Shown: piece by piece, positions 1-20,276 of the stretch | Numbering within the stretch: the first letter of the stretch is position 1 | Layout: each line of letters opens with the position of its first letter | Assembly: GCA_963739305.1 (NCBI GenBank) | Contig: CAVTZU010000027.1 | Location: 1-26,669, forward strand | DNA: 26,669 nt | Direction: 5' to 3' | Source: Candidatus Bathyarchaeota archaeon | GTDB lineage: Archaea; Thermoproteota; Bathyarchaeia; Bathyarchaeales; Bathycorpusculaceae | Made by a program: the position numbers and the translations under genes | Notes under the pieces: model-generated | Databases searched by the model: none | What the model saw: the letters and a program-made list of their open reading frames with translations, nothing else | What the model was told of the DNA's origin: nothing

Positions 1-2433
1 TTTCAAGTTCCCATAGGACAAAATTGGAGCATCGTCTGCCCGCTCGAGGCTAATCATGAGTATCATGCTTACCTTTACGGCAAATGGATCAGCAATGCAG
101 CGTTGAATAAGACCGACTACGACGTATACGTCTACGACCCCTATGGAACACTTGTAGGCTATCACACTCCCTCCGCCGGTTTGCCTGAACATTTGGGATC
201 CGGGTCGGACGAGCCATTCTTCATCCCTGAATACACGGGCAACTACACGTTCACTATAGCCAACGCTGCTGGCGAAAGCATGGGATCGCAGCAGGCAACG
301 TTCATGATAATTGAAGATGTCGAAAGCAACACCTGGCATCAGCAGTATATAGAAGGGACGGACGATTATGGTTTGCCAACTCTATACACAAGCTGGGCCT
401 ACGAGTTCTTCACCGATAGTCCGCATGTTGAAGTCCGAATCAGAGTTCCAGACACTCTAGACATGTACGAGGCCAGACTTTATCTGATGGCTTCTCCAAC
501 AGCCACGAACTACACACTGTTGGACGGAATTCCCTTAGCTTGGGAACCAGGACTGTACGGAAACAGAAGCAGCAACCTAGGCGGGTACAACACTGACAGC
601 CAGGGATACGAAGGCCAAGCGTATGCGAGTTGCGAGAGCTTCGGTCAAGACATGTTGATCAGCTTCAATTCGGCACCGGGAGAAAGCCTCTATCATCTAG
701 TTTTCATAGGCGAGAAAGGGTATGGAAACGTAAGTTTTCTAGTTCAGACAGCTTTTGATTCAGGCCTACAGCCTTCAGACAACCCTGACCAAATAATGCC
801 TGGGGACAACGCCACGATCGCCTACATCTCCCAGACCACAGACCTAGAAAACGCAACACTCGACTATTCAACAGACAACTGGCAAACAATCAGCACTGTC
901 AACATGAACATTTCGGGAGACAACAGAACATGCAGCCAAGTCATACCTGCCCAGCTGCCTGGCACCACCGTGCACTATCGAGTCGAAGCACTTGACTTCA
1001 TGGGAAACACCCTCCTTGCCAACGGAAGCTACATCGTCGCAAAGCTTCCCGTAACGTATCTGGATAAGCCCATGGTCCCAGTTTACGTAAACGAGTCACA
1101 AATCCAGATCGGCAAAAACTGGACAATCATGTGCCCGCTTCAGGCGAACCACAGCTATCACGTCTACTGCTACGGCGAATGGATCAACACAGGCCCAAAC
1201 CCAGTAACTGACTATGAGGTTTACGTCTACGACCCATCGGGCACGATGGTTGGCTACCATACTCCAGCAGCCGGGTTTGCTCCTCATCTAGGAAGCACAG
1301 TCGATCAAGCCTTTTTTGTCCCACAGTACACAGGGAACTACACGTTTGTAATACGCAATGACGCAAGAGAAAGCAACGGGACCCAACAAGCAACATTCAT
1401 GATAATCGAAAATGTCGACGTCAATGTCTGGCATCAAGTCTACATTGAAGGAAAAGACGATAACAGTATGCCTCTTCTGGACACAAGCTGGGCCTACGAC
1501 TTCACAACTGACAGCCAGTACATAGAGGTTCACGTTAAGGTTCCACAAACCTTGGACATGTACGAGGCCAGACTCTTCGTAATGTCAAACTCGAAATCTG
1601 GAAACCAAACGATTTTAAACGATTTCCCACTTGCTTGGGAACCGGGGCTCTACGGAAACATAAGTCAAGACAAATCCGCCATCGGTGGCTACAACCTTGA
1701 AAGCAAAGGATACCGTGGCAACGCCTATGCGAGTTGCGAGTACTACGGCCAAGACATGTACATGAACTTCACGTCTCCGTATCCGGGAACGAGTCTGTAC
1801 CACTTGGTCTTCATAGGCGAAGTTGGCTCAGGAACTATTGACTTCCTAGTCAAGACAGAATTCAACAACAGCCTCTTAACCCCTTCAACCATCCCGGATA
1901 GGGCTTTTCCAGGGGACAACGCTACTGTATCTTACACTTCAAACTCGACGGCCTTGGAGAACGCAACGTTGGAGTACTCAACGGATGGTTGGAAAACCCA
2001 AAATTCTACCAGTATGACGATCCTCCAAAACATGACCTGTAGCGCAGTAATTCCTGAACAACCAGCTGGCACGGTCATCGAATACAGAGTCACTGCCGAC
2101 GATGTACTGGATAACGTTCTGAGTGCCAACGGAAGCTACCCAGTGAAGTATCCTTCATCCTTAAACTTTACCCAAATCAACATTAGGGCGAGTCCCGGTG
2201 AGAACGTGACAATCAAAGGCTTTCTGACCCCTCAAACTGCAGATATGCCAATTATTGTCTCCATCGCTTCCGCGAATGAAAGCAAAAACATCATCTGCCA
2301 CACGCTTAGCGACGGCACCTTTTCAGCAAACTTTGAACCAGATACTGTGGGAACATGGATTGCCAGCGCAAGATTCAATGGAACGGACACTGTCTACGGA
2401 AGTGACGCTTCCACAGCCGACAATAGTGGTTGA
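1..2433 (+). CDS. Large secreted/surface protein with two tandem ~365-aa repeats and a C-terminal Ig-like domain; 5'-partial; membrane anchor lies in another frame
   Basis: Frame is open from base 1 (FQVPIGQNWSIVCPLEANHEYHAY matches QIQIGKNWTIMCPLQANHSYHVY in repeat 2). DYDVYVYDP, TLDMYEARL, PLAWEPGLYGN and SLYHLVFIGE are duplicated. Many NxT/S sequons. Confidence 0.8.
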   Translation, partial: FQVPIGQNWSIVCPLEANHEYHAYLYGKWISNAALNKTDYDVYVYDPYGTLVGYHTPSAGLPEHLGSGSDEPFFIPEYTGNYTFTIANAAGESMGSQQATFMIIEDVESNTWHQQYIEGTDDYGLPTLYTSWAYEFFTDSPHVEVRIRVPDTLDMYEARLYLMASPTATNYTLLDGIPLAWEPGLYGNRSSNLGGYNTDSQGYEGQAYASCESFGQDMLISFNSAPGESLYHLVFIGEKGYGNVSFLVQTAFDSGLQPSDNPDQIMPGDNATIAYISQTTDLENATLDYSTDNWQTISTVNMNISGDNRTCSQVIPAQLPGTTVHYRVEALDFMGNTLLANGSYIVAKLPVTYLDKPMVPVYVNESQIQIGKNWTIMCPLQANHSYHVYCYGEWINTGPNPVTDYEVYVYDPSGTMVGYHTPAAGFAPHLGSTVDQAFFVPQYTGNYTFVIRNDARESNGTQQATFMIIENVDVNVWHQVYIEGKDDNSMPLLDTSWAYDFTTDSQYIEVHVKVPQTLDMYEARLFVMSNSKSGNQTILNDFPLAWEPGLYGNISQDKSAIGGYNLESKGYRGNAYASCEYYGQDMYMNFTSPYPGTSLYHLVFIGEVGSGTIDFLVKTEFNNSLLTPSTIPDRAFPGDNATVSYTSNSTALENATLEYSTDGWKTQNSTSMTILQNMTCSAVIPEQPAGTVIEYRVTADDVLDNVLSANGSYPVKYPSSLNFTQINIRASPGENVTIKGFLTPQTADMPIIVSIASANESKNIICHTLSDGTFSANFEPDTVGTWIASARFNGTDTVYGSDASTADNSG

Positions 2434-2818: not shown

Positions 2819-3025
2819 GTTTAAGAAACTTTTCACTAACTAGAACTCCGAGAGCTGAAAGAAAATGGTGGAGTTGCAGGAGAAATCGTCAAGTTGGTGG
2901 TGAATAGCTGAACTCCACTACTGCGTCGGTACATCTGGACTTGATACTATCCTGTAAAATGGCTTCTCCTTGCCCTAATTTGGCGGACTTGAGCCCGTCT
3001 GAATATGAGCCCGGTCCGGCCCACC

Positions 3026-3035
3026 TAGCGCGCGC
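3026..3035. repeat. TAGCGCGCGC junction motif
   Basis: Perfect copy, intergenic. Confidence 0.8.
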
Positions 3036-3135
3036 TCAACAAAATCAGCGTTTGCAAATATTTACTCAGGTAATTTGAAAAAAGAATATAGAAACTGGGA
3101 TAAAGCTAATCTTAGAATAGAGCTATTGGCTTAAT

Positions 3136-3285
3136 CTAAAATCGACTTCTTCTTGGGGGTGCTCTCTTCGAGTAACACTCTCGGCAGTATACTGGTCTGC
3201 TACCATCGGGCTTGAATGGTACTTCACATTCCTTTCCACATTCAGCGCAAACTGCCTTGTGCATCTCTTTTCTTTCATACGTCAA
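3136..3285 (-). CDS. CxxC-x17-CxxC domain small zinc-finger protein (49 aa; below the ORF-track cutoff)
   Basis: MTYERKEMHKAVCAECGKECEVPFKPDGSRPVYCRECYSKRAPPRRSRF; family-typical CxxCG..CEVPFKP...RPVYCxxC; TTG start with GGAG upstream; TTTATAA on the minus strand at ~3359-3365. Confidence 0.9.
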   Translation of the reverse strand: MTYERKEMHKAVCAECGKECEVPFKPDGSRPVYCRECYSKRAPPRRSRF

Positions 3286-3458
3286 CTCTTTCAACTCCTT
3301 CGCAGTTGCTGTGCAAAAATCACTTCTTACACGCTTCTTTCACCGTTCACATCGCAGCTTATAAACAGCACGCTCAGAATTATGAAGTCGAGACCCATTG
3401 AAATCAGATTCGCAAGCGTTCCACTTCACCGCGATAAGAAGCGCGCAAACGAAATCGA

Positions 3459-3545
3459 CAGAATCAGTAGAACCACCTTAGGCTCGTCCATTCTGTGGAT
3501 CGATCCTGGAAACTGCTCCGGCTCTTACATGGTTTTTGCAAGTTT
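3459..3545 (-). pseudogene. tbp: Degenerate internal fragment of a TATA-binding protein gene
   Basis: KLAKTM*EPEQFPGSIHRMDEPKVVLLIL versus the archaeal TBP signature YEPEQFPGLIYRMxEPKVVLLIF; flanked by GCGCGC (3441-3446) and GCGTGCGC (3548-3555). Confidence 0.75.
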
Positions 3546-3611
3546 GGGCGTGCGCTCAGCTTGCAAGAAAAGCTTTAGTTGTAGGCACGACATTGTTTGT
3601 CTTGTGAGTAA

Positions 3612-4139
3612 ATGAGTGATGTAAATTCTCTCTTTGAAATCAACGATCTGGTGCTGAAGAAGAAGATACTCTCTGTTCGTGAGCACTATGACTTAGAGGA
3701 TAGGACTGGGATGAAATTGGGAGAGGCTGATGGCAATCTCATTCAGCTTCCAGCCAAGTTTGTCGTCATCGATACCCATGGTTCTGAGTTGATGCAAATC
3801 AAAGGAAAAGTACTGTCGCTCCGAACCCAGTTCACTTTTTACGACGATGCAGGCGCGGAACTGGGAACTATCAAGAAGAAGATAGTCAAGCTGATTGGAG
3901 AAGAGTACTGGGTAGAAAAAAACGGAGTTGAATTCATGCGTATCTACGGAGACTTCACGGAGCACAACTATCAGATGGAGATCAACGGGGTTCAGGTCGC
4001 GTCTGTACATAAGAAGTGGGTTTCGGTGCGAGATCAGCTCGGAGTATCAATAACGGGAGAAGCGGATCACCGAGTGGTAATCGGAGCAGTGATCGTGATC
4101 GAACACGTGGAAGTTACGGAGAGGCAGAGTCACCACTAG
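3612..4139 (+). CDS. LURP-one-related/scramblase-like (tubby C-terminal-like) protein
   Basis: Repeated K(K)xLSxR beta-hairpin units, IxGDFxxHNY, VAxVHKKW.SxRD and a C-terminal hydrophobic helix. Confidence 0.8.
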   Translation: MSDVNSLFEINDLVLKKKILSVREHYDLEDRTGMKLGEADGNLIQLPAKFVVIDTHGSELMQIKGKVLSLRTQFTFYDDAGAELGTIKKKIVKLIGEEYWVEKNGVEFMRIYGDFTEHNYQMEINGVQVASVHKKWVSVRDQLGVSITGEADHRVVIGAVIVIEHVEVTERQSHH

Positions 4140-4178
4140 ACTGTGACAAGACTCAACGTTGATTTGGGCAGTTTGCAT

Positions 4179-4187
4179 GCGCGCGCG
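4179..4187. repeat. GCGCGCGC junction motif
   Basis: GCGCGCGCG between the LURP-like and nuclease genes. Confidence 0.8.
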
Positions 4188-4253
4188 AAGCAATCGAAGA
4201 TTCTTCCACAAGTCATAAGAACGTTCAAGAGAGTTTGAAGTTCTTGGTGACAA

Positions 4254-5567: not shown

Positions 5568-8500
5568 TTATGGATAGTGTTGGTTATAGTGGCCTGCCAG
5601 GAGTATGGCGTCAAAGATGTCGACAGTGCCGTCTGCATTAAGGTCGGCGTTCGGGTTCCATTTGGGGCTTGTTGGCGTGGAGAGGAATGCAGCTGCAAGT
5701 ATTATGGCGTCGTAGATGTCTACGACTCCGTCGCCGTTGGTGTCTCCAGTTATCTTCGAGATTGTGAGGGTCACGTTTCCGGCGAATGGTGTACCGCCAA
5801 CCAGAGTGCCTGTTATGTTGAAAGTGTTTCTTCCGTAGGTTTTGCCTGTCGCATTAAGAACGTATTGTTCTACTAATGTTCGGTTGAAGTAGACCTTAAG
5901 GTTGTTCTCAGACTCGTTATACACGGGCATGGCAAAATCATAGGGATATAATGTACCGTTCAGCAGAGTGCTGACGGTGTCGTTGAGGCATATGGACCGA
6001 ATATCAATCGCGCTTGCGTTCAGATTTGTCACGCCGTTTCCATCAGGTATTTTTATGTAAGCCGCTATGAGGGTGTCGGTAGTGCGCGGATTAATAGCTG
6101 AAGGCGACAGTTTCAGTTCTGCGCCTACTGCTTGGAGAGGTGCGGGCATTGTCACGGAAACATAATGCACGTCGCTGGTCACGTTGTTGTAGTCGTCGTC
6201 GCCTAACCACTTTGATCGAGCGAAGAATCCACTGAGCACTCCACCATTTCCTAGATCTAGTTGTGGTGTGGTGATGTTTCCTGAGAATTGTCCACTGTCA
6301 ATTATTCTTCCTGTGTATAGGATTTCGGGCACGGTCCAGTTATAGTCATAGACGCCGGTTGAGCTAACGTTCAGGATGCCTACGGTAAACCATGTAGAAC
6401 CATCTAGGCTGTACTGAAAGATAACAGGTCTATTCTGAAGTGCCGGCCCAATTGTGGCGGTCATTTTGATGTCGGTGGCTGCTTCCACGACATCTGAAGA
6501 CACAGACAGCGATAATGAGGGATCTGCTTTGTTCACAATCACTGTTTGAGTTTCACTTGTTCCGTTGCTGTATATTGGATCACCGCTCCAGTACGCTCGA
6601 ACGGAGAAGTTTCCTGCGCTGGGCGGAGTCCATTCTCTAACGAAATACGTTCGATTGGGAGTTGCGGAATCAATGTCGGTCCAAGTTACGTTGTCGATGC
6701 TGTACTGAAGGTAGATTGTGCCGGTGACTATTGAGGAAGGAACCAGCCCAGCCCCAAGCAGGATCGACTGGCCAAAATTAATGATCGGATTCGTCGGGTT
6801 AGTGCCGAACAAAATCGTTACCTGATGCTTTATCACTCTGAAGTTGTCAGTGGTCACGTATTGGACGAAACCTTTCAAGTCAATTACGTACACCTCAACC
6901 TGGAAGATCCCGCCCAAGTGCTGTTCAATCAATGACCCGTAAGTGCTTATTGAGATTGAGTCGTTCCACAATCCGTTCCAGTTGACGGGAACCACGTAGT
7001 CGTTCGTGCAGAAGGCGTTGCCGTCGGGATCCCGCCAAATATAGCGAATTGTCTTAGCGAAAGCCGCGAAACTTGGCGTGATGCTCGTATTTGTCCACAC
7101 CCTGTCGTAATTCGTGAATAGGGTAGGGTCAGGCGAATAGACGAAATTTGAACCGACTTGCCCGAATATGTGATGGGATCCAGCCATAGTCTCACCACGT
7201 ATATGAATTATCGGCAGGTACATCGAAGTGGAGTTTATGATACTGCGGATATACTCGGGATATGTAAACCATATACGGGCGTTGTACAGAGTGAAGATTG
7301 GGCTCTTAATGTCATAGACTCCCACTCTTAGTTGGTCAGTATCGCTTGAATTAGGAAAGATGCACACCCAGTAGCTTCCAGGAGCTTCAATCTGACCTAC
7401 GTTAATGTAGCTCAGGTAGTCGGGTGGTCCGGGCGGTGTAGTAGTGAAGAACTCACCGTAGCGGTGAGTTGCCCTGTACAATACGTTGATACCGCCCGAG
7501 GTAGAATTCAAATACCATATTTCGACCAAAAATTGCCTGGTTCCATCTCCCGTGTAGTAGGCTGGAAAACCTATTTGTTCAACCTTGAAACCTTGAACAG
7601 GGGGGTTATAGAACTCTGCGGCCCAGCCAATGATGGCGGCGTGAGGGTCCGTGGGTTCACGCCAATACTCATTTGGTACACCGCCCGCCGGCTCCGTACT
7701 GTCGAATTCTTGAATCCCAGGAACATCGGGTGCGACTCTCAAGTTTACAGTCCCGTTTGAGGCTTTATACTCACCGTTTCCAGAATAGGTAGCCCTGACG
7801 GTGTAGTTACCATCGCTTGCTGGCACCCACCAGTAAGAAAAGGCCGCCCCCTGCAAGTAGGGAGTACCTATCGGCTGCCACGTACCGCCTCCATCGAGAC
7901 TGTACTCCAATACGATTCTTCCTTGTATGAGGTTGAACCAAGAGCTGTAGTCTGAGTGACTGTTGAGGAAGTTGCATGTGACTGAACCCGCAAGATAAGT
8001 GCCGCTGCCCGTCATAATTGCATAGTTTGGCAGCTGGAGAGTAGTCCTTGTGTTGGCCAATCCGAATTTTCCCTTCCAGCTTTTTATCACTTCGTCTTTC
8101 AGCGTATAGCTGGTGCTTTCAATGCCCAGTAGATATTCGAGCCAGCCTGCAATGGCAAGACCGGCGTGTATTCTAAAGCCCAGATCGACGGACCAGACCG
8201 CCAAGTCAGGGTCATCGGCCGAATAATAGTTTATCAAGGCGTGCACGTACGGTTCAAACCCGACCCATGGACCGACGCTTTCGAAGAACATCAGGCTAAG
8301 GTCAAACTCGACGCCTGCATCCGCCTCCAAGTACAGTTTGATTTCGTTAGCACCCCACGTGTGGGAACTGTAAGAGCTGAATTCGGCAATGGGACTCCAC
8401 CCGTCTTTAATGTCCCACTGTATGCCGGATTTGAAGTAGTAGCCAATTATGTACTCAAAGTAGAAGTCGAGCTCACCATTCATTTCCAGATGGACGTAGG

Positions 8501-9776
8501 GCTTCATATGCAGATCAAGGCCTGCCTCAATTGGAATCGTAGCGATCTCGAAGTACAAAATGGCCAAGCGATAAGTCCAAGATGCATCCCAGTCGCATGT
8601 GAAAGCGGGGAAATGGACATAGAAGTCCAGTCTGATCTTCAATTCGGCATCTGCGCCAAACCATGCTCTGAACCACTGAAGTAGCAACCCACTGAAATCC
8701 CATCCAACATACCCTGAAAAAGTTACCGAAGGAGTAAGCGTAAGATCAACCTGTAGTCCGTTATCGTTAATAAGAGTGGTTGTGATGGAGAAACCCATTC
8801 CTATCGAGAAATCGAAGTGGGAATCACGCTGGAAATCGCCAGACTGCATTCTCTCAAGCCCCAACGACGCCGAATTCGGCAAAAGATACGTGATCCTAAG
8901 GTTCCTGTAATTGCAGAAGTTGTTGAACAAATCGGAATCAGGTGCTGTAATGTTCGAATTGGACACGGTGGTCCTGTCAGTTAGGATCACAGTTGAGTCC
9001 GAGACAGCAACGTCTGCACTCATATAAGTGCCTCCTCCGAAATCCAGCACCCAGTGTAACCCAGAAAGTTCATCGCTGTTGAGCAACGTCGCTCCGATCG
9101 GGAGCCTGATTTCCGTGGTCCAAACAATCGTGTAAGTATCTACACCTTGGATCGAGTCGAGCAGCATTTTTGCGAACATTATCTCGGTCATTTCGTAACC
9201 GATGACCGTCTTCTTCGCATCTTCATCCTTCTGACCGATAAAAAGAGTCCAGATGCCGTCGGCACCGTTAGCCGTGACGTTCAGCACCTGAGGTGTGGCC
9301 ACTGCGCTGAACGAGTATCTGAAGCCTCCGTCACTGTCTTGAGGCATCATCGACGAATTGAGTATCTGCGTCGTGAAACCAAACGAGTATTTCTGCTCCT
9401 GCCGGACCGAGCGGTAGAACTCTTCCCTCACTGGCAGGCTGTTCTGGATTAGATTTTGGCTCAGATTGCCCGTCGACTTCCTTGTTTCTGGAATCGGGAT
9501 TTCTGTTCCGACCTCAGTGTCAGATGGTGCTGCCAGGTTATCCCTGTACCTGTCAGCCAGAGGAGAGTTGGGTGCAACTGTGTTAACTATTAATTGAGCG
9601 TCTCCGTTTTCTTCTACGATCACCTGCTCCTGCGCGTACATTTTCAGAATCTTACTATCTGCATCCTCTGCCCAACTCGTCAAAAAGACGCTGCCAACAC
9701 TGCAAAAAGCAGAACCGACAATGAGGAACAACAGTGTAGAAGCAGCAAGTCGCCTAATGGCTACTGGAACTTTCAT
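5568..9776 (-). CDS. 1402-aa secreted multidomain surface protein with Ig-like repeats and C-terminal dockerin
   Basis: Signal peptide; three (L/F)(E/Q)YS.D...W ... (V/F)RA.(Y/W)SG-type Ig-like units; duplicated dockerin motif GDTNGDGVVDIYD...ADLNADGTVDIFD. Confidence 0.85.
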   Translation of the reverse strand: MKVPVAIRRLAASTLLFLIVGSAFCSVGSVFLTSWAEDADSKILKMYAQEQVIVEENGDAQLIVNTVAPNSPLADRYRDNLAAPSDTEVGTEIPIPETRKSTGNLSQNLIQNSLPVREEFYRSVRQEQKYSFGFTTQILNSSMMPQDSDGGFRYSFSAVATPQVLNVTANGADGIWTLFIGQKDEDAKKTVIGYEMTEIMFAKMLLDSIQGVDTYTIVWTTEIRLPIGATLLNSDELSGLHWVLDFGGGTYMSADVAVSDSTVILTDRTTVSNSNITAPDSDLFNNFCNYRNLRITYLLPNSASLGLERMQSGDFQRDSHFDFSIGMGFSITTTLINDNGLQVDLTLTPSVTFSGYVGWDFSGLLLQWFRAWFGADAELKIRLDFYVHFPAFTCDWDASWTYRLAILYFEIATIPIEAGLDLHMKPYVHLEMNGELDFYFEYIIGYYFKSGIQWDIKDGWSPIAEFSSYSSHTWGANEIKLYLEADAGVEFDLSLMFFESVGPWVGFEPYVHALINYYSADDPDLAVWSVDLGFRIHAGLAIAGWLEYLLGIESTSYTLKDEVIKSWKGKFGLANTRTTLQLPNYAIMTGSGTYLAGSVTCNFLNSHSDYSSWFNLIQGRIVLEYSLDGGGTWQPIGTPYLQGAAFSYWWVPASDGNYTVRATYSGNGEYKASNGTVNLRVAPDVPGIQEFDSTEPAGGVPNEYWREPTDPHAAIIGWAAEFYNPPVQGFKVEQIGFPAYYTGDGTRQFLVEIWYLNSTSGGINVLYRATHRYGEFFTTTPPGPPDYLSYINVGQIEAPGSYWVCIFPNSSDTDQLRVGVYDIKSPIFTLYNARIWFTYPEYIRSIINSTSMYLPIIHIRGETMAGSHHIFGQVGSNFVYSPDPTLFTNYDRVWTNTSITPSFAAFAKTIRYIWRDPDGNAFCTNDYVVPVNWNGLWNDSISISTYGSLIEQHLGGIFQVEVYVIDLKGFVQYVTTDNFRVIKHQVTILFGTNPTNPIINFGQSILLGAGLVPSSIVTGTIYLQYSIDNVTWTDIDSATPNRTYFVREWTPPSAGNFSVRAYWSGDPIYSNGTSETQTVIVNKADPSLSLSVSSDVVEAATDIKMTATIGPALQNRPVIFQYSLDGSTWFTVGILNVSSTGVYDYNWTVPEILYTGRIIDSGQFSGNITTPQLDLGNGGVLSGFFARSKWLGDDDYNNVTSDVHYVSVTMPAPLQAVGAELKLSPSAINPRTTDTLIAAYIKIPDGNGVTNLNASAIDIRSICLNDTVSTLLNGTLYPYDFAMPVYNESENNLKVYFNRTLVEQYVLNATGKTYGRNTFNITGTLVGGTPFAGNVTLTISKITGDTNGDGVVDIYDAIILAAAFLSTPTSPKWNPNADLNADGTVDIFDAILLAGHYNQHYP

Positions 9777-9940: not shown

Positions 9941-12900
9941 CTATGTCAAAAGGTCTGGCGCCTTTTCTTTAAGATACCGTCTAACCAAATCTCTTTCGTA
10001 ATGAATTCTAACCCTCAGAATGTGTCCTCCTCTGCCCCTTTCCCCAAGAAAGGTCTGCAAGTCAACCAGACCTTTCTTCTGCAACTCAGACAGTCCATAA
10101 CCCAAACGACCACCAGTTCCATATAGACTCCTCTTAGAGACCCCTGCTTCTTCAACGATCTGAGGAAAACTCCTCCACCCCGACTTCTCAGGGCTTAGTC
10201 TCCGCTTCACGCAATCCTCAACAAAAGCATTAACAAGACAGTTGAAAACAACCTGAGCCACTTTAGACTGAAACTCAACGACTGGAAGAATTTTGGTCTC
10301 TTTAATTCTAGTCGTCCTGAAATTTCCCAGTTCATCAACGTAGACCACAAGAGGGGACAAGCTGACACTAACGACGTCTGCTATCTGAACCCAAATGCTA
10401 ATCGACTCCACAGAAAGAGGATCAAGTCTCTTACCTCTCATGTTCAACGAACCACCTTCTAAAGCGCAATAGGAAGGCATCCTCAGAACTTTGCTTCTCG
10501 GAGGTATCAGACCCTCTATCCTAACCAACAAACCAGGTTCCCTGCCAACGTTAACCAAGTCAAGCTCAACTTGAAACTCCTCACCCGGGACAAATTCTTT
10601 AGGAACAGAAAGACGAGCCCTTACATTGACTGACTCAAATCCGTTCAAGCCAGCAGCCTTCTCTGTTGAATCCGGCATCGAAACCCCAGTTGTACTGGAT
10701 AGAACGGAAGGAACTGTCAGAACCTCGTTCAGAGAAAACGCCAACTCGCGTTGTTTCCTCGCTCTTTCAAGACTTTGAAGCACTTCATTCTTCTTCTCAC
10801 GATATCCCGCCTGGCCATAAAACTTTGCAGACAACTCCAAACATCTCTCAGCCATTGAATAGAACCTGACCCTTTTCTCAGGCTCGGCCTCGGCCTCAGC
10901 GTTGCCCACATAAACATAAGCATCAAAGAGTTTTTTGGCTGCCTCAACCCATAATGCAGGCTTCTCAAGCCCGGCCCTCAGGTAATAACCTGCTGCGTTC
11001 TCCATCCGCAATTTGACTCCCGAATAGAAAGCCCTGTTCGAGGTAGCCATGAACTTCATTCCTAGCTCCAAGGCCTCGCAAAAACAACTGTTTCCCTCGG
11101 CAGTCAATTCAGCTGTCTTTCTATGGCTGATTTTGCTTGCTTTCGCAAAAAGCTCTGCTGCCTTCTTATAAAGGGTTGCGTCTCCTCTTTCTTCAGCAAG
11201 CTCCATCTTCTCCCAAGCTTGGCAAGTAGTAGCAGCGAACTGTAAATCTCTGCGGGCTTCCTCCCTCTCTAAATTTGGCGCTATTTCCTTGAAAATTCTT
11301 GCAGCATAAGCGAATTTCGTGGCACTTGAAATTCTATCGCCCTTTCGGTTAGAAAGTTTAGCTTCCTCCATCAACGCTTTTCCCATGCAATATTGCTTTC
11401 GCAATCTAGCAATGTCTGCAAGCTTGAAAGCTTCTTCTTTCTCCTCGGAGTTTTCGAACTCTTCAGCTGTCCTACGCAGAATATCTGAGGAATCTCCGAA
11501 GCTTCGGCTAGCCCGTTTGAAAACCTTCATCGCATCTTGAAGTTTGTCCAACCTGCTGAGAGCTTCTCCATGTTCAAGGAGAGACCAAGCAAAGTAATAG
11601 GGGAATTGATAAGACCACTTTTCGGTTATTTCCAAAAGGCGTGAACACATACGATAATGGTCTCTAGATCTTCCGTAATCTTCGTTTTCATGTTCGTGCC
11701 TTGACCTCTCAATTTCGGCCCAAGCTCTCATGTATAAGCTATAGTCTGAGTAAAAACCGATGAGAAGAGGAATCTTCTCAGCCGCAAATCTATAGTTTTC
11801 GGATGCTAACCCAAAGTTTTCTGCAGCCTGTAAATGTTCGTCCAAAGCATCGTATGTCTGTGCCGCTTTCCAGTGGCACTCCGCAACGCGGTTCTGGAAC
11901 CTGATATGTCGATTTGATTCGGCTGCCTCTGCAAAGAATTTTGCAGCCTTTCTCAGATGTTCCTTATCATCTGTGAGCTCATAGAGGTGATTTAACCATA
12001 CCCCACTGTTGTACTGTAAGATTCCTAAATTCCGAAAATACCCTTGCACGCGTGTCTTTCCGTGATATATTTCTTTGATGGCAAGTTCCATGCTCTTTTC
12101 ACTATCTACTAAGGACTTTCGGATCATGCGTTTCTTTGTCTCAGGATCTTTTGTCAAGTCAGCGAGTTGATATTTTATGGTGGCAAGGTTGGCCAACTGC
12201 ATACCACGATTCCAATAATGGAAGCGCCCTAGTTGTTCGACGATTCTAATGGCCTTCTTTCTGTGTTCCAAAGCTTCTTCTAGAAGCCTGGTCTTCTCTA
12301 TCGGGTTCTTTTGCATGAGGGCGAGGGATACAAGTGTTTGGCTGAAAATGTGATTGACATATGCTATGACGTCTGGATATTCAGAAGACTCTGCTCTTTT
12401 GAGTCCGTCTGCTGCGACTTCTCTTGCTTTTTCAAGCAAACGGAGCTTTCTTCCTAAATCTGTCTCATTATTAGCCAACCACCAATAATACTCGATATGT
12501 ACCCACTCTGCCCAAAATGAGTCCGCACGTGGGCTCATGAACGAGATCGGAGCGTATTGCTGCATAGCATCTTCAGCGTACCGGAGAGTTGCTTTGTACA
12601 CCCTTGATCGTTTTTCTGGGTCTTCAAATTTATATCTACTCCACCCAGAATGATAAGTCAGCCAGTCGAGTGCACATCCGATGATAAACTTGTCCCTGGT
12701 TTTTCTTCCACACTCTAAGGCTTTCTTAAGGTTCTTGAAAGCCTCGTCGCTGGCATCTCCCCACAAGAGATACAGGCCTCCGAAAACAGGAGGCAACATT
12801 TCGAGTAACGCGATTTCTTCGGAAAGTTTCTTGGCTTTCCGCCAATAATCTTGAACCCTTTGACTACCCTTCACCCTCTCGCTTATTTCAAGAAAATAGT

Positions 12901-13552
12901 AGTCAAACACTCCTGAACAGAAGGCGGTTTTTGCATAGGCCCTTGCGAGTTCGAAGGGATCTTTAGAGGAGGTAAGAGACTTGATCGCTTGTTCTCCATG
13001 TTCTACTGCCTCTCTCATCAGCTTCTCGCGGGTTTGAAAATCCCATTCAAAGCAGAATCCGAGAACAGGGCTGTTTGAAAGCTGGTTGTAAGTTATCCCA
13101 TACTCCAGTTGGTCACCTATCTCCTGAAACACCCCCAGACTCTCCTTTGTGAGCTTCCAACACTCTTCGAGCAGCCTCTTCTTTTCAGACATATCAGATG
13201 CTAACCAATAACCCACGTAAGCAATCATCGCGTCACACCGAATCGTCCTTGGTTTCTGTTTCTGCCCTCCAATCTTCCCATAGAATTCTTTAGCCCCTTC
13301 ATAGTCTCCAACTACTTGACGCATTCTGTCCCTGAACTCCTCCACACTTTCAGCCTGCATGCCTGCCCGATAGAAATCATAACCGATTCTCTCTTGAATC
13401 TGCCCCATCGTCAAAAAATCCGTCTTAGACACCAAGTCCAAGACCCCCCGGCGTAACTCAATCGCTCCTAGCCAATCATAATTCTCCTCAAGTATCCTAG
13501 CTCTGCCTACGGCACCTCCCAAACCTTCATCCCCAGGCATAGCACAAACCAT
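9941..13552 (-). CDS. 1203-aa TPR-like helical-repeat protein with beta-sandwich domain and C-terminal winged helix
   Basis: Long Ala/Glu/Lys-rich helical repeats; VELDLVNVGREPG beta domain; C-terminal GWRSFPQIVEEAGVSKRSLYG...LSELQKKGLV...GERGRGG wHTH. Confidence 0.75.
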   Translation of the reverse strand: MVCAMPGDEGLGGAVGRARILEENYDWLGAIELRRGVLDLVSKTDFLTMGQIQERIGYDFYRAGMQAESVEEFRDRMRQVVGDYEGAKEFYGKIGGQKQKPRTIRCDAMIAYVGYWLASDMSEKKRLLEECWKLTKESLGVFQEIGDQLEYGITYNQLSNSPVLGFCFEWDFQTREKLMREAVEHGEQAIKSLTSSKDPFELARAYAKTAFCSGVFDYYFLEISERVKGSQRVQDYWRKAKKLSEEIALLEMLPPVFGGLYLLWGDASDEAFKNLKKALECGRKTRDKFIIGCALDWLTYHSGWSRYKFEDPEKRSRVYKATLRYAEDAMQQYAPISFMSPRADSFWAEWVHIEYYWWLANNETDLGRKLRLLEKAREVAADGLKRAESSEYPDVIAYVNHIFSQTLVSLALMQKNPIEKTRLLEEALEHRKKAIRIVEQLGRFHYWNRGMQLANLATIKYQLADLTKDPETKKRMIRKSLVDSEKSMELAIKEIYHGKTRVQGYFRNLGILQYNSGVWLNHLYELTDDKEHLRKAAKFFAEAAESNRHIRFQNRVAECHWKAAQTYDALDEHLQAAENFGLASENYRFAAEKIPLLIGFYSDYSLYMRAWAEIERSRHEHENEDYGRSRDHYRMCSRLLEITEKWSYQFPYYFAWSLLEHGEALSRLDKLQDAMKVFKRASRSFGDSSDILRRTAEEFENSEEKEEAFKLADIARLRKQYCMGKALMEEAKLSNRKGDRISSATKFAYAARIFKEIAPNLEREEARRDLQFAATTCQAWEKMELAEERGDATLYKKAAELFAKASKISHRKTAELTAEGNSCFCEALELGMKFMATSNRAFYSGVKLRMENAAGYYLRAGLEKPALWVEAAKKLFDAYVYVGNAEAEAEPEKRVRFYSMAERCLELSAKFYGQAGYREKKNEVLQSLERARKQRELAFSLNEVLTVPSVLSSTTGVSMPDSTEKAAGLNGFESVNVRARLSVPKEFVPGEEFQVELDLVNVGREPGLLVRIEGLIPPRSKVLRMPSYCALEGGSLNMRGKRLDPLSVESISIWVQIADVVSVSLSPLVVYVDELGNFRTTRIKETKILPVVEFQSKVAQVVFNCLVNAFVEDCVKRRLSPEKSGWRSFPQIVEEAGVSKRSLYGTGGRLGYGLSELQKKGLVDLQTFLGERGRGGHILRVRIHYERDLVRRYLKEKAPDLLT

Positions 13553-13665: not shown

Positions 13666-13674
13666 CGCGCGCTA
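13666..13674. repeat. Junction motif CGCGCGCTA (TAGCGCGCG on the minus strand)
   Basis: Directly precedes the integrase remnant. Confidence 0.75.
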
Positions 13675-14090
13675 CCATCAAAGTTTCAGAAAAGACAATT
13701 GCCATGATAAATGCTCTGCCGAAAAAGTATGGAGACTACCTATTCAGCATGAACTCTCATGCTTTGGATACCACATTTACCCACACCTGAAAAGCACTGG
13801 CAAACAAGCTACAAAACCCAAACCTCTTGCAAATACACTTTCACACGCTGAGACATTGGCGAGGAAAGAAAGAGTTTCGTAAGCACAAGAACATCTACGA
13901 CGCCAAATACATCTTGGGACACAAGTCAATCCTCAGCACTCAAAGATACACCGAAGGCGAAGAATTTCAGGGAGACGAATACTATTCGGCAGAAGCCAAA
14001 ACCAAAGAAGAAGCGAGACAACTCATAGAAGCAGGATACAGCTACGTGACTGACATAGATGGTGTTAAACTGTTTAAGAAGCCAAAGTGA
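13674..14090 (+). pseudogene. Tyrosine integrase, C-terminal remnant
   Basis: TIKVSEKTIAMINALPKK...FTHT*KALANKLQNPNLLQIHFHTLRHW...LGHKSILSTQRY: HxLR, LGH and catalytic Tyr present; in-frame TGA at 13788-13790; N-terminal part absent. Confidence 0.85.
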
Positions 14091-15901: not shown

Positions 15902-17224
15902 TCAGGCTCTGGTCAACGGTCTTCTCTTGTAGACTATGACTGCCAGTGATGCTGCTATCATGAATAGTGGTAGAATCAGGAATGATGGAAACTCTGGAAT
16001 TGAATACTCAAATGGTATTGTATCCACATCCATGGTGTAGTTCGAGACAGGCTGATGAAAAGTGAAATAGATTATAGTGTAGGTGCCGTTTGACTGAAGA
16101 ATTGTGGCATTGAAGAAATTAACGTAATACATCCCTGAATTAGTTGGATTCTGGTATTCTGTCCAGATAGAGTAGTTAGATGAATTTAGCAGGTCATTGG
16201 GAAAAGTGATCCTATAGAAGGCAACAGCATCATTCTCACACAATATTGTGAAATGAAGCCTCCAAAGATACTGATCTCTGTCTTGTCCAGTTGGAACAAG
16301 CTGCACTTGTTCTACTGTTGAGTTGCCTATCACATCAACTTCTCCAGACACCAGCACGTTGTGTCCAAGATCCCAAGCAGACACATTGAAACTCTGGAAA
16401 GTACCCATCAGAGGATAATGGTCAATAACGGATTGGTTAATGTATGGTGTGTCTCCTATTCCATCACTGCCATTTTGGTCTTGAACAGGACCACTGTATC
16501 TATCAGTTCCTCTGTAATCACTCCAATAATTGCCGCCTATTGGGTAATCACTGTTGAAGTTTGCTCCTGCTGCATAGAGGAAAACTTGTTCGGTGTTGTT
16601 GATGAAGTTGTTTGACCAAATATTGATGCCATTTCCTGCGTAGCCAAGTGATATGCCAGTGCCAGAGTTGTAAGCAAAAGTGTTTCCAATGATTGTGATG
16701 TTGTTGCCTCCATATGATGACAAACCAACTGAATTGTTTTCTATATCATTGCCAGTGAGAACAGTTCCTCCTTGTGATAAAACTTCAAATCCCCAGGAAT
16801 TTTCAATAATGACACTTCTACGGATTTCAGTGTTGAATCCCAGACACTCAATCCCGAAATTGCCATGCTTGATGGTCACGTCATGAATCTGGACACCACT
16901 CGTTACATTCATTATTAGAATTGTTGCTTCACTAGTGAAATTACCATCGATGATTGTTGTGTTTCTATTCGTTCCAATAATTGATATAGATTTGTTGACA
17001 ATTACTTGTCCATAATAGGTCCCTTGGTCCAGCAGAATGGTGTTTCCTTGAACAGTTTCATTGGCGTTGATTGCCTCCTGAATTGTCGTGTAGTTCAAGC
17101 CTGTGTTAAGGTTATGAACAGGGTAGCCATCAGAAGCTCTCACGCCATTTTGTTGAAATCTTGGATACCCCAAGATAACAAGAAGCATCAGGAAAACAAG
17201 AATGAGAACCAACTTTCTGCTCAA
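15902..17224 (-). CDS. NosD-like parallel beta-helix surface protein with PEF-CTERM
   Basis: Signal peptide; YTTIQEAINA; beta-helix repeats; GNYWSDY...DGIGDTPY; IPEF + TM helix + KRR. Confidence 0.88.
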   Translation of the reverse strand: MSRKLVLILVFLMLLVILGYPRFQQNGVRASDGYPVHNLNTGLNYTTIQEAINANETVQGNTILLDQGTYYGQVIVNKSISIIGTNRNTTIIDGNFTSEATILIMNVTSGVQIHDVTIKHGNFGIECLGFNTEIRRSVIIENSWGFEVLSQGGTVLTGNDIENNSVGLSSYGGNNITIIGNTFAYNSGTGISLGYAGNGINIWSNNFINNTEQVFLYAAGANFNSDYPIGGNYWSDYRGTDRYSGPVQDQNGSDGIGDTPYINQSVIDHYPLMGTFQSFNVSAWDLGHNVLVSGEVDVIGNSTVEQVQLVPTGQDRDQYLWRLHFTILCENDAVAFYRITFPNDLLNSSNYSIWTEYQNPTNSGMYYVNFFNATILQSNGTYTIIYFTFHQPVSNYTMDVDTIPFEYSIPEFPSFLILPLFMIAASLAVIVYKRRPLTRA

Positions 17225-17304
17225 GGTACACCGCCACTGATCACAATGGTTACCTCAATAATTATAATTTGTGGAGAAATCTTTTACCATATTCTATGTT
17301 AGCG

Positions 17305-17315
17305 TAGCGCATGCG
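17305..17315. repeat. Junction motif variant TAGCGCATGCG
   Basis: Between the divergent NosD-like genes. Confidence 0.5.
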
Positions 17316-17379
17316 ATTTGCACCGTAACGGATAAATTGCCTAGAACGGGATAGTCTTAGTTGAATTGGGGAAGGCAGA

Positions 17380-19252: not shown

Positions 19253-19735
19253 ATGTCACAAAAGGCGAAATCCTCGTTGACAGTCGTGGTTCAGGGAGCT
19301 TTCAGCGGTGAAAAAAGCGGGGGGTCCTCAATTTTGGGCGGTAAGACGGCTCGCAAAATTGTGGTAGCCCGTCGTATTTCCCAACTTCGGAGAAGTGTGA
19401 GGTTTGATACTGACCGGTTGAGACGGAAGACTATTGGTAGTCTTGAGCAGTTGTTTGATGTTGCCACTGATTTTGCAAAGGGAAGGATCAAGTGGCAGAC
19501 GCAGGACGGTAAGGCCTCACCGGTTACGATTAAGCAGAGGCAGATGTGGGCTCGTATCGCTGCGTACGTCGCTCAAATCATGAACACGATTGCGAACGGG
19601 ATTGATGAACGACAGATTGACAAGGATTTGGCCTTGCTGGAGAAGCTTGTGAATGAAGCAACGGCAAAAAACAACGGTTCACACTCTAGACCGGAACATG
19701 GCCAAGAAGCGAACGCTCCCAAGGCTCCCAGATGA
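19253..19735 (+). CDS. Helical hypothetical protein overlapping the terminase gene (possible small terminase subunit)
   Basis: Basic, helical; directly upstream of and overlapping terL; start uncertain; function inferred from position only. Confidence 0.55.
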   Translation: MSQKAKSSLTVVVQGAFSGEKSGGSSILGGKTARKIVVARRISQLRRSVRFDTDRLRRKTIGSLEQLFDVATDFAKGRIKWQTQDGKASPVTIKQRQMWARIAAYVAQIMNTIANGIDERQIDKDLALLEKLVNEATAKNNGSHSRPEHGQEANAPKAPR

Positions 19736-20161: not shown

Positions 20162-20171
20162 TAGCGCACGC
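20162..20171. repeat. Junction motif variant TAGCGCACGC
   Basis: At the apparent terminase breakpoint. Confidence 0.7.
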
Positions 20172-20264
20172 TTCTTTTTCACAGTATGGTTTGCAGGAGT
20201 GTGCCATTGGAAGGGAAAGTGGAACATTAGATTTATTAGTGGTACTGGAAAGGCATTAAGGTTA

Positions 20265-20276
20265 AGCGCGCGCTAG
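20265..20276. repeat. AGCGCGCGCTAG junction motif
   Basis: Supplies TAG stops on both strands. Confidence 0.8.

Follow-up and report, generated by a model that had tools for sequence, protein, structure and literature searches.

A relic of a TATA-binding protein gene between two GC-rich words related to a transposon-associated octamer in a Bathyarchaeia genome

Results

Organization of the locus

The window, i.e., the whole stretch of DNA that was analysed, comprised 26,669 nt of a Candidatus Bathyarchaeota archaeon (the host genome, G000). A small treble-clef zinc-finger gene, which matched PF23477 (zf_Tbcl_2, 4.1e-20), and a LURP-one-related (LOR) gene were divergently arranged, and an 84-nt relic of a gene for TATA-binding protein (tbp) was located in the spacer between them (Table 1). 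The relic was placed upstream of the promoter-like stretches of both genes, which are putative promoters; by analogy with archaeal promoters in general, the stretch GCAAGAAAAGCTTTAGTTGTAGG would be a putative BRE/TATA element. An Rfam scan of positions 2900–3900 gave no match at E values up to 1.

Table 1. Coordinates of the features in the window.
Feature	Position	Strand	Remarks
Small treble-clef zinc-finger gene	3136–3294	-	52 aa from TTG, or ~42 aa from ATG at 3264
GCGCGC	3441–3446		Separated from the fragment's 3' (sense) end by 16 nt; taken for a worn or incomplete GCGCGCGC
Unassigned 16 nt between GCGCGC and the fragment	3447–3462		No significant match in the genome
tbp fragment	3463–3546	-	Remnant (84 nt) of TBP repeat 2, approximately residues 135–163 of a TBP of ~190 aa
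In-frame TAA	3525–3527	-	Occupies the place of the conserved Tyr codon (TAT) in ..MYEPEQFPG..
GCGTGCGC (GCGCACGC on the tbp sense strand)	3548–3555		Separated from the fragment's 5' (sense) end by 1 nt
Promoter-like stretch GCAAGAAAAGCTTTAGTTGTAGG	3563–3585	+	Precedes the LOR gene; conservation seen in L012/L023, L027 and L024
LOR gene	3612–4139	+	PF04525, 3.6e-13
Full GCGCGCGC octamer	4179–4186		Closely follows the LOR block, which ends at 4175
Tyrosine-recombinase pseudogene, 5'-truncated	13677–13997	+	Truncation point 4 nt after GCGCGC (13667–13672)
Second motif-bracketed copied segment, 88 nt	20183–20270		Short repeat with ~10 partial copies in the genome

The two GC-rich words beside the relic were separated by 101 nt. 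The word GCGTGCGC differed by one transition from the palindromic octamer GCGCGCGC and straddled the start of the LOR block at 3553; decay of the octamer via single point changes was seen between strain variants. At a solo scar, the insert would be expected to have GCGCGCGC, or a word close to it, directly at each end. Here, both words were imperfect, with gaps of 1 and 16 nt, and taken alone they would be weak evidence. The likeness between positions 3447–3462 and the sequence following the tbp stretch in the donors was not above that of shuffles. The nearest inverted pair to the fragment had 13-nt arms (3327–3339 and 3436–3448). Further full octamers in the window started at 2547, 3028, 4847, 20266, 20414, 20582 and 21057. 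Moreover, the tyrosine-recombinase pseudogene, 10 kb from the fragment, repeated the pattern of a truncated gene that abuts the motif.

The zinc-finger gene and its upstream region to 3426 formed one conserved block. This block (3036/3056/3075–3426) had 84–90% identity in same-genus genomes at loci lacking the LOR gene, and the LOR block (3553–4175) had 83–88% identity in G004, G001, G008 and G009 at loci lacking the zinc-finger gene. The blocks occupied separate loci in G001, G004, G005 and G008, whereas in G002 the zinc-finger block was present with no LOR gene adjoining. No tbp sequence was found at 46 related loci. The two blocks were not neighbours in any relative searched, indicating that the spacer of the fragment is a rearrangement joint. 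In two relatives, a motif of the same type also came after the end of the conserved zinc-finger block, namely GCGCGC in L016 and GCGCACGC in L017. A contig from another public run (X2 record 10) spanned 3308–3667 and one from a different study (X6 record 28) spanned 3305–3550, each with 1 difference, and the best holders among the bridging runs may include the source sample of the window itself. A strain variant related to the window lacked 37 nt, part of the tbp fragment included.

Identity and decay of the tbp fragment

In a preliminary description of the sequence, a decayed TBP fragment was reported between two motifs approximately 100 bp apart, with the minus-strand reading KLAKTM*. This account was confirmed. 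The exact frame (...AERTPKLAKTM*EPEQFPGSIHRMDEPKVVLLILSISFARFLSR*) was recovered with its in-frame TAA, and the Pfam TBP profile PF00352 matched 3462–3542 on the minus strand (profile positions 28–54 of 85, E 1.3e-4 genome-wide) with 23.0 bits, which only just passes the cut-off of 22.9 bits. The DNA identity to the host tbp genes was stronger proof than this marginal score. In blastn, identities of 76/84, 73/80 and 72/80 were obtained for the genes on contigs C14, C8 and C11, respectively, with E values down to 1e-28; over the same 84 columns, the values were 76/84 for C14 and 74/84 for each of C8 and C11. When the 19-nt and 33-nt flanks were aligned with the donor flanks, 626 to 1909 of 2000 shuffles reached the observed score. 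Hence, the tbp homology is detectable over 84 nt only and stops inside both motifs. Neither of the outcomes that had been named in advance as counting against the fragment, a missing TBP match or homology running past both motifs, came about.

The host genome contained five intact tbp paralogs, on C14, C8, C11, C17 and C15, each with both repeats, compared with three to four genes in more complete relatives. The genes on C14, C8 and C11 were 86–89% alike, and none of the tbp genes of the relatives was closer than 90% to the fragment. The comparison proposed for finding the donor thus led to the host's own tbp genes and to the C14/C8/C11 group, but a single donor could not be named, as 76/84 and 74/84 do not distinguish the three paralogs. 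The suggested GCGC microhomology at the donor breakpoints was found in part: the C8 gene has GCGCGC directly 5' of the position of the fragment's first base, whereas the C14 gene does not, and none occurred at the 3' breakpoint. In the intact copies, the homology of C14 to C8 begins right after GCGCACGC, and that of C11 begins right after GCGCGC.

An archaeal TBP has two repeats of ~85 residues each in one frame of ~180–200 aa. The fragment had 28 codons of one repeat with an internal TAA, had no start codon and lay outside any plausible gene. It covered the YEPEQFPG..PKVV core of the second repeat. The codon at the TAA position was TAT in all three near paralogs and TAC in C17, and the change of TAT to TAA fell in the YEPEQFPGLIYRMD stretch, which did not vary among four of the five intact genes. 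Seven changes were private to the fragment; five of them altered the protein, TAT to TAA among them. The fragment was the sole isolated TBP piece above the cut-off among 63 PF00352 matches in 11 genomes of the genus. It was absent from all 30 relatives searched, and a 39-nt word sought in genome_contigs and a 24-nt word sought in metagenome_contigs gave 0 matches. Judged by these comparisons, the fragment is a dead piece of one of the host's own, recently multiplied tbp genes that descends from the C14/C8/C11 group and evolves without constraint. Taken alone, it is an ordinary gene relic that presumably does nothing.

Abundance and distribution of the octamer

The octamer GCGCGCGC occurred 359 times in the host genome, a 14-fold excess over the ~26 expected. 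With crude ORF sets (longest ORFs of at least 90 aa), 285 of the 359 copies (~79%) fell outside ORFs, often near the 3' ends of genes. Exact 8-nt runs numbered 178 beginning with G and 24 beginning with C. The shorter word GCGCGC had 748 overlapping occurrences in the ~387 kb outside ORFs. All ten same-genus genomes contained 29–464 octamers, compared with 0–14 in the other eight genera of the family and 0–6 in other families, except G024 with 53. The clustering of the octamers (61 observed) was not beyond chance according to random intergenic placement, which gave a simulated mean of 47.4 and a maximum of 77.

Enzymes that could be associated with the octamer were sought. The C5 methyltransferase profile (PF00145) had no match in G000 or G001 and was matched in two of the ten other same-genus genomes. 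The Y1 transposase, TnpB and DDE_3 profiles had no matches in the genome. The octamer was also considered as an att site within SSV-type split integrase genes and rejected as such, with the motif in 0 of 10 integrase ORFs. A search of the literature on the octamer in archaea, Bathyarchaeia TBP paralogs, Bathyarchaeota IS/MITE elements and Sulfolobus IS footprints returned nothing on the phenomenon in the portions of the sources that were accessible, and the octamer phenomenon is regarded as moderately novel.

Relation of the octamer to an insertion sequence and its MITEs

A 1084-nt insertion sequence (IS) with 35-nt inverted ends (TAGCGCGCATGCGTGTTCC..) was found in the genus. Its transposase of 328 aa, encoded on contig C18 of G000 (locus L182, 388–1374), matched PF01609 at 7.2e-25 and scored 139 bits against IS1182 (cut-off 270) and 102.7 bits against IS5_4 (cut-off 140) in NCBIfam. 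These scores are below the curated cut-offs, so the transposase is a distant member of the IS5/IS1182 type. MITEs with the same type of ends were present in approximately 25 copies of 145–290 nt in G001, and the IS/MITE end pattern was matched 7, 72, 101, 40 and 25 times in five genomes of the genus, whereas a control pattern was matched 0–1 times. GCGCGCGC is the outermost part, or a palindromic target duplication, of these inverted ends. The solo octamers far outnumbered the recognisable ends in G000 (359 vs 7), and we know of no comparable excess of a solo word for a prokaryotic IS.

In the whole window, the IS/MITE end pattern (GCGCGC..GC.TGTTCC..AAATTC) was not found above expectation (2 matches at 3 mismatches, 1.5 expected; 1 match, 0.9 expected). 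Inverted ends, as a MITE carrying the fragment would have on both sides, were not present around it. Orthologous empty sites were examined for 24 MITE copies of G001; both flanks lay on one G000 contig for 4 of them, and 1 was readable, with GCGC at the position of the MITE. In a 93-kb alignment of strain variants, no polymorphism of GCGC versus octamer was found, and 2 of the 21 indels of at least 2 nt were near GCGCGC.

Octamers at synteny breaks and around copied DNA

The octamer was present in 23 of 176 spacers at synteny breaks and in 4 of 357 spacers of conserved adjacency. Homology ends, which are not independent owing to repeat families, adjoined the motif in 62 of 507 cases, compared with 4–20 in shifted controls. 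The partner copy was without the motif at 44 of these 62 ends, indicating that the DNA copied is arbitrary where the motif is concerned. Only 12–15% of the homology ends abutted the motif; thus, most rearrangement ends in the genome are not linked to it.

Repeated-segment places in the host genome were bracketed on both sides, with the motif within −12 to +20 nt, in 22 of 647 cases, and the corresponding value was 0–3 in 14 shifted controls. In G001, a complete genome of the same genus, the values were 48 of 918 and 0–4. Bounded copies elsewhere were found for 28/204 and 49/291 inter-motif segments, compared with 12/816 and 22/1164 in the controls, whereas 133/204 and 192/291 of the short inter-motif segments had no copy elsewhere. 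The bracketing of copied DNA by the motif is a recurrent, non-chance pattern. The proposal of the preliminary description that arbitrary DNA is captured or trimmed was supported in part: copied DNA is bracketed in both genomes, and in the host genome the partner copies are mostly motif-less.

Two strain-variant contigs differed by a 4.2-kb cargo-only segment, which had an octamer at each end, whereas the other contig had a single octamer; another strain-variant difference was a replaced segment between octamers. The motif was at the truncation point of five of nine integrase fragments, two of the five being strain-variant copies of one locus. Among 12 isolated short gene fragments in the genome, 7 were without the motif within 60 nt.

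Discussion

Origin of the tbp fragment

On balance, the tbp fragment, which lies at a rearrangement joint, is probably debris without a function, left when GC sites were broken and repaired in connection with transposons; our confidence in this explanation is moderate. IS5-group elements use short palindromic targets and make duplications of 2–4 bp, and IS elements are a cause of adjacent deletions and rearrangements. The fragment could have arrived by two routes. A break may have been filled with a short tbp stretch. Alternatively, a whole tbp copy may have been inserted and then have lost both ends by deletions that ran inward from the motifs. The tbp copies on C14 and C11, which start right at the motif, are cited for the second route. 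The two routes are considered about equally likely. As to the solo octamers themselves, they may, hypothetically, be footprints, in which two 4-nt GCGC target duplications would be left side by side once the element leaves; only one orthologous empty site is in support of this, and the lack of a GCGC-versus-octamer polymorphism between strain variants counts against it. Where a copy has a full octamer adjoining it on either side, a simple model of half-site footprint plus filler does not fit.

A broader role of the octamer is a tentative possibility. Throughout the genus, GCGCGCGC might be where a cut-and-paste system acts, with arbitrary DNA being inserted or exchanged and the octamer duplicated in the process. 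The inserts would range from 60-nt gene scraps, such as the tbp piece, to multi-gene cargo blocks, and the agent would be either the IS5/IS1182-like transposase, working on more than its own ends, or another enzyme.

Debris of transposon-linked breakage has to be weighed against plain decay, in which a sixth tbp paralog was whittled down by ordinary deletions and the nearby GC words are coincidental. GCGCGC is common in intergenic DNA, the motifs flanking the fragment are imperfect, and other gene scraps exist, most of which have no motif nearby. Moreover, the five tbp genes of G000 show that extra copies arise and can die. However, bracketing on both sides was rare by chance in the shifted controls, the motif borders two intact tbp copies on their 5' side and lies at the truncation point of five of the nine integrase fragments, and no relative has a tbp gene beside either neighbouring block. 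Plain decay is rated as unlikely.

The preliminary description had further read the fragment as a spacer-like insert. In a dedicated insertion process, an enzyme would make a staggered cut in the palindromic octamer, arbitrary DNA of tens of bases to kilobases would be inserted, and the octamer would be duplicated on both sides, much like a target-site duplication or the duplication of a repeat when a spacer is taken up. Many copied segments do abut full octamers on both sides, with 0–6 nt between and a donor without the motif; the 4.2-kb segment differs from its variant contig as such an insertion would, and bounded copies are ~9 times commoner between motifs than in controls. These observations notwithstanding, the idea was not upheld. 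The shared word is of 6–8 nt, array-like clustering is absent, and about two thirds of the inter-motif segments have no copy elsewhere. Neither cas genes nor an intact integrase is nearby, and the genome holds only Cas1 fragments and none of the three transposase types sought. Furthermore, a conventional IS/MITE family of IS5/IS1182-like type already accounts for the octamer, as its end or target word, and the motifs at the tbp fragment are not full octamers, one of them being 16 nt off. A dedicated insertion process is distinctly improbable for the fragment.

A retained function is a still poorer candidate and is very unlikely. The fragment would target tbp mRNAs in the form of an antisense or decoy RNA, given its 90% complementarity to three of them over 84 nt, or would act as a regulatory element, given its place between two putative divergent promoter regions. 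Its absence from the 30 relatives and from the word scans is against this, as are the neutral appearance of its changes, with a stop and altered conserved residues, the lack of an Rfam match, its position upstream of both neighbouring genes' conserved putative promoters, and the related strain variant that has lost part of it. The RNA runs contained just 0.05–0.06 of the sampled words. Finally, a chimeric contig join through the repeated tbp gene of a metagenome bin, for which 7.8% contamination, many near-duplicate contig ends and the multiple tbp copies might speak, is scarcely credible, since at least 8 of 84 positions differ from every tbp copy, leaving no long shared word to mis-join reads, and both junctions recur in unitig-like contigs of other runs, one of them from a separate study.

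Comparison with known systems

The fragment is derived from archaeal TBP genes, with 88–91% DNA identity to three host paralogs, but it has 27 of the 85 profile positions, a stop codon and no start, and is a relic rather than a functional member of the family. The 1.08-kb IS of the genus resembles IS5/IS1182-type elements in its 35-nt inverted ends, its DDE transposase (DDE_Tnp_1) and its same-ended MITEs; it differs in the distance of the transposase and in the hundreds of solo GCGCGCGC beyond recognisable ends.

REP/REPIN elements are short, palindromic, lineage-specific and intergenic, and they are often near the 3' ends of genes, all of which applies to GCGCGCGC. In contrast to REP/REPIN elements with RAYT, there is no Y1 (RAYT-type) transposase in the genome, and the word is of 8 nt rather than 20–40 nt. 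Filler DNA and footprints are formed at transposon excision or double-strand-break repair, and Pack-MULEs and Helitrons capture gene fragments in plants; these systems are eukaryotic and involve end joining. The present joint is similar in that a short, unrelated piece of a host gene is flanked by transposon end or target sequence, but the host is an archaeon and no inverted ends surround the tbp piece.

HIP1 (GCGATCGC) of cyanobacteria is described as a highly iterated palindrome, a lineage-specific octamer that is over-represented many-fold (PMC4390886, PMC5861425), and is tied to orphan methyltransferases (PMC4390886). GCGCGCGC is likewise a palindromic octamer that is lineage-specific and strongly over-represented, as a HIP-type word is. 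It differs in that, for the C5 class, no methyltransferase was matched in G000 or G001, and in that it lies mostly outside ORFs, marks synteny breaks and is part of IS/MITE ends.

CRISPR arrays and integron cassettes also hold foreign or arbitrary DNA between short repeated sites, and the site is seemingly duplicated on insertion. No regular direct repeats of at least ~23 nt accompanied by cas genes were seen here: the GCGCGCGC site is only 8 nt, its spacing is irregular, it is not clustered beyond chance, only a 6–8-nt word is shared, and no cas domain was found among the 21 ORFs of the window, with only two Cas1 fragments in the genome, both on another contig. Compared with integron cassettes, there were no attC-sized sites and no long inverted repeat beside the fragment, where an attC-type palindrome would be expected, and instead of an IntI-type integrase at an array head the window has an integrase piece that is a pseudogene.

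Implications

The value of the tbp scrap is that of a marker. Its source gene is unmistakable; hence, it shows arbitrary host DNA landing between copies of a GC word. More broadly, one eight-letter palindrome, with 29–464 copies per genome searched in a peat and soil genus of Bathyarchaeia, tracks changes in gene order. The octamer is tied to a mobile-element family and borders duplicated genes, among them the additional copies of a basal transcription factor. If the footprint or target reading is true, past transposon traffic in this uncultured lineage of archaea could be counted from the octamers, which would also be a handle on the swapping of surface-protein and defence gene blocks. If the octamer is the site of a cut-and-paste system, that system would be the chief driver of gene-order turnover in these Bathyarchaeia and of their capture of gene fragments, an archaeal counterpart of Pack-MULE transduplication in which each solo octamer would mark a past event.

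Identity and Decay of the tbp Fragment

Translation of the minus strand over 3441–3555 returned the reading ..KLAKTM*EPEQFPGSIHRMDEPKVVLLIL.. given in the preliminary description, and the two motifs said to bracket it, GCGCGC and GCGTGCGC, were both present. The fragment, an 84-nt piece derived from the TATA-binding protein gene (tbp), scored 23.0 bits against the Pfam TBP profile (PF00352; cut-off 22.9, E 1.3e-4 in a whole-genome search) and covered profile positions 28–54 of 85, with one TAA inside. The same search found five intact two-repeat tbp genes in the window's own genome bin (G000), on contigs C17, C11, C8, C14 and C15. At the DNA level, the fragment was the counterpart of the second repeat and was identical to the C14 copy at 76 of 84 nt, to C8 at 73 of 80, to C11 at 72 of 80 and to C17 at 62 of 77. 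The profile match, the identity to the C14 copy and the in-frame TAA upheld the description of the piece as a decayed TBP fragment. Its homology to tbp ended inside both motifs: beyond the 84 nt, the likeness of its flanks to tbp flanks was not above that of shuffles, and the rest of 2900–4200 had no match to the tbp genes or their 800-nt flanks. The near paralogs on C14, C8 and C11 were 86–89% alike pairwise and the fragment differed from each by 9–12%; no donor could be named because these distances were similar. None of the tbp genes of 30 relatives exceeded 90% identity to the fragment, which was the only isolated PF00352 piece above the cut-off among 63 hits across 11 genomes of this genus. 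The tbp genes numbered five in G000 versus three to four in more complete relatives. ORFs of 102–124 aa weakly resembled TBP profile positions 33–82 at a sub-threshold 15–18 bits (C18:45572–45682 in G000; similar in relatives G003, G004, G006 and G009); they may represent a distant TBP-fold family, or noise.

Seven positions were private to the fragment relative to all three near paralogs. Five were non-synonymous (Gly→Ala, Tyr→stop, Leu→Ser, Tyr→His, Ile→Leu) and fell within or beside the YEPEQFPGLIYRMD stretch, which all but one of the five intact tbp genes share unchanged. Judged by its sequence, the fragment reads as a dead gene piece. The arrangement is real, and both junctions were spanned by contigs of other public sequencing runs, of which the best-matching may include the window's source sample: a unitig-like contig (run X2, record 10) bridged 3308–3667 with 1 difference, record 28 of run X6, from a separate study, bridged 3305–3550 with 1 difference, and contigs of run X1 additionally covered 3323–3484 and 3498–3667. 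One X1 contig, with six other differences, joined 3436 to 3474 and missed 37 nt, among them the GCGCGC and 11 of the fragment's nucleotides. Hence, a related strain varies at the fragment's own joint.

Genomic Context

The fragment sat between a divergent pair of genes, encoding a zinc-finger protein and a LURP-one-related (LOR) protein. The window belongs to a Bathyarchaeia MAG whose genus occurs, going by the titles of related bins, in peat, fen and soil. In same-genus genomes, the zinc-finger block (3036/3056/3075–3426) and the LOR block (3553–4175) each showed 83–90% identity to the window. The two blocks were apart in the complete same-genus genome G001 (2.31 Mb versus 1.79 Mb) and on different contigs in G004, G005 and G008, and G002 had the zinc-finger block on two contigs, with no adjoining LOR gene. 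Moreover, tbp sequence was absent from all 46 related loci (within 1.5–3 kb on each side of either block). The fragment therefore lies exactly in the 126 nt between two blocks that are joined only in this lineage. Neither the promoter-like conserved LOR stretch (3563–3585) nor the conserved region upstream of the zinc-finger gene overlapped the fragment, which is presumably untranscribed. Rfam gave no match in 2900–3900. A GTG-started ORF of 118 aa (3259–3615, plus strand) ran across the entire spacer, fragment antisense included, and overlapped the start of the zinc-finger gene; it had no Pfam match, is probably spurious, and masked the fragment in an intergenic blastx screen.

Much of the window (1–2433, 5568–9776, 9941–13552 and 15902–18768) was taken up by very large proteins, secreted or surface-bound, that bear dockerin, Ig-like and NosD/beta-helix domains; for these parts, same-genus genomes offered at most weak counterparts. 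The stretch 22534–26669, the window's 3' end, matched the end of contig C22 (37482–41614), also in this bin, at 97% identity. Contig ends of G000 overlapped often, at 95–99% identity, which indicates a strain mixture in the bin.

Coordinates of the fragment, its neighbours and related features (window positions unless a contig or genome is named)
Feature	Location	Strand	Remark
tbp fragment	3463–3546	minus	84 nt
Stop in fragment	3525–3527	minus	TAT to TAA
GCGCGC beside fragment	3441–3446
GCGTGCGC beside fragment	3548–3555
Small treble-clef zinc-finger gene	3136–3294	minus	PF23477
LURP-one-related gene	3612–4139	plus	PF04525
Octamer starts	2547, 3028, 4179, 4847, 20266, 20414, 20582, 21057
Tyrosine-recombinase pseudogene	13677–13997	plus	5'-truncated 4 nt past GCGCGC at 13667–13672; internal TGA
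tbp paralog	C14:49540–50238
tbp paralog	C11:77950–78549
tbp paralog	C8:38131–38733
IS5/IS1182-like IS, G000	C18:148620 to contig end (L182)
IS5/IS1182-like IS, G001	389078–390161 (L083:9078–10161)

Abundance and Distribution of the Octamer

The motifs beside the fragment were read as worn copies of an eight-letter palindromic GC word, GCGCGCGC. This octamer occurred 359 times in the genome against about 26 expected under a first-order model, a 14-fold excess, and the window contained 22 GCGCGC where 3.8 were expected. Outside a crude ORF set (longest ORFs, minimum 90 aa, greedy choice) that took up 83% of the genome lay 285 of the 359 octamers, with a peak 0–20 nt past stop codons and the highest density between convergent genes. 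Alternating G/C runs of exactly 8 nt started with G in 178 cases versus C in 24, runs of at least 11 nt were nearly missing, and TA was favoured on both flanks. The pattern was replicated in G001 (231 versus 36 exact 8-nt runs; 381 of 464 octamers outside ORFs). Such run lengths mark a specific word, not a microsatellite. The octamer is a genus trait, with 29–464 copies in all ten same-genus genomes, 0–14 in the family's other eight genera and 0–6 in other families, except for 53 in G024.

Association of the Octamer With Moved and Copied DNA

In a synteny comparison of G000 with G001 (1232 reciprocal best hits), octamers were found in 4 of 357 conserved-adjacency spacers versus 23 of 176 synteny-break spacers (0.084 versus 0.561 per kb). 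A (GC)3-or-longer run lay within 12 nt of 62 of the 507 internal ends of repeated segments, compared with 4–20 in outward-shifted controls; these ends are not independent, owing to repeat families and strain-variant contigs, and contamination of the G000 bin stands at 7.8%. The partner copy lacked the motif at 44 of the 62. Among 2263 genes, 81 3' ends and 15 5' ends abutted such a run. Of the short segments (40–400 nt) between motifs, 28 of 204 in G000 and 49 of 291 in G001 were copied elsewhere with homology that ended at the motifs; among control intergenic segments, this held for 12 of 816 and 22 of 1164, respectively. Repeated segments bore the motif on both sides at 22 of 647 places in G000, the tbp fragment and a second window case (20183–20270) among them (0–3 in 14 shifted controls), and at 48 of 918 in G001 (0–4 in controls). 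Several points speak against a tie between the fragment and the GC motifs: both of its motifs are imperfect, one lies at a distance of 16 nt, no IS end occurs in the window, and the motif is uninvolved in most homology ends of the genome. That the fragment is unconnected with the motifs is unlikely.

Strain-variant contigs in the bin, 95–99% identical, differed at octamers. Where C3 had a single octamer, C2 carried a segment of 4.2 kb flanked by octamers on both sides, and C13 and C17 held different segments between octamers. The cargo of these variable segments consisted only of cohesin/dockerin, solute-binding/dockerin and NosD-like proteins and a STAND ATPase; no recombinase was found in them. 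Some strain-level indels ended at a promoter-like direct repeat, GGGGTAAAGTTTTATCC, and not at the octamer (C8:6374–9041 versus C30; C2:12160–12750 versus C3). In the genome, 12 recombinase hits exceeded the Pfam cut-off. Five of nine integrase fragments started at the motif, two being strain-variant copies of one locus and one the window's recombinase pseudogene, and so did two 3'-terminal scraps of another gene. In the region 19653–21064, a 207-aa ORF with an N-terminal terminase domain only (Terminase_6N) ended in an octamer and was followed by four more GC motifs within 900 nt; the first spacer past it (20172–20265) was a short repeat, of which the genome has about 10 partial copies.

Read along the tbp sense strand, the locus runs GCGCACGC, 1 nt, the fragment, 16 nt and GCGCGC. 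The likeness of the intact C14 copy to C8 started directly past GCGCACGC, where C8 has a TATA-like region, that of C11 started directly past GCGCGC, and all three diverged at a GCGC-rich spot 35 nt beyond the stop. Because the TATA-like upstream region of C8 and C17 was lost at the GC motif in C14 and C11, the latter two genes may be driven by other promoters.

Insertion Sequences and Proposed Origin of the Octamer

A MITE family of G001 (205 nt, about 25 copies), of which G000 had no copy, showed inverted ends of about 24 nt beginning GCGCGC. The matching autonomous element was a 1084-nt IS with 35-nt inverted ends, TAGCGCGCATGCGTGTTCCTAAATTC.., beginning TAGCGCGC. The G000 copy encoded an intact 328-aa transposase (PF01609 at 7.2e-25, plus DUF772), for which the nearest NCBIfam models were IS1182 and IS5, both with scores under the curated cut-offs. 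MITE families sharing the IS ends were found across the genus, and the end pattern GCGCGCNNGCNTGTTCC, with at most one mismatch, occurred 7, 72, 101, 40 and 25 times in G000, G001, G002, G004 and G008, respectively, versus 0–1 for its reversed control. Because GCGCGC is palindromic, that at the end may belong to the inverted end, with TA being duplicated, or may combine a GCGC target duplication with a terminal GC. One orthologous site had GCGC in G000 where the MITE sits in G001. Given these readings and this one supporting site, solo TA-GCGC-GCGC-TA words could be two target duplications left behind once an element departs, which would account for the exact length, G start, TA flanks, intergenic bias and genus limit of the octamer. 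No GCGC-versus-octamer polymorphism occurred in 93 kb of strain-variant alignment; 25 of 29 and 25 of 26 octamers were conserved between strain variants, and the others carried point changes such as would turn GCGCGCGC into GCGTGCGC.

Interpretation

We lean towards the fragment being the non-functional remains of one of the host's tbp copies, lying at a rearrangement joint scarred by transposons. The tbp piece may have been captured as filler, consistent with bracketed pieces of 60–130 nt in both genomes, G000 and G001, some of them gene-internal. Alternatively, and about as likely, a full inserted tbp copy would have been trimmed down, as the intact C14 and C11 copies starting at the motif and the extra tbp genes of this lineage suggest. 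The spacer-like inserts proposed in the preliminary description found no support as a dedicated acquisition process, because octamers did not cluster beyond chance, most inter-motif segments were unique and no cas genes lay nearby.

Relics of genes are familiar, as are IS5-type elements and MITEs, and the fragment is ordinary. The nearest described counterpart of the octamer is HIP1 of cyanobacteria, an over-represented palindromic octamer that differs in being tied to methyltransferases (PMC4390886, PMC5861425). A search of the open literature returned no account of the octamer in archaea, nor of Bathyarchaeota IS or MITE families. The new element is the joint occurrence of the octamer's genus-wide excess, its identity with IS ends, and its tight tie to synteny breaks and copied DNA, the components being of known kinds.
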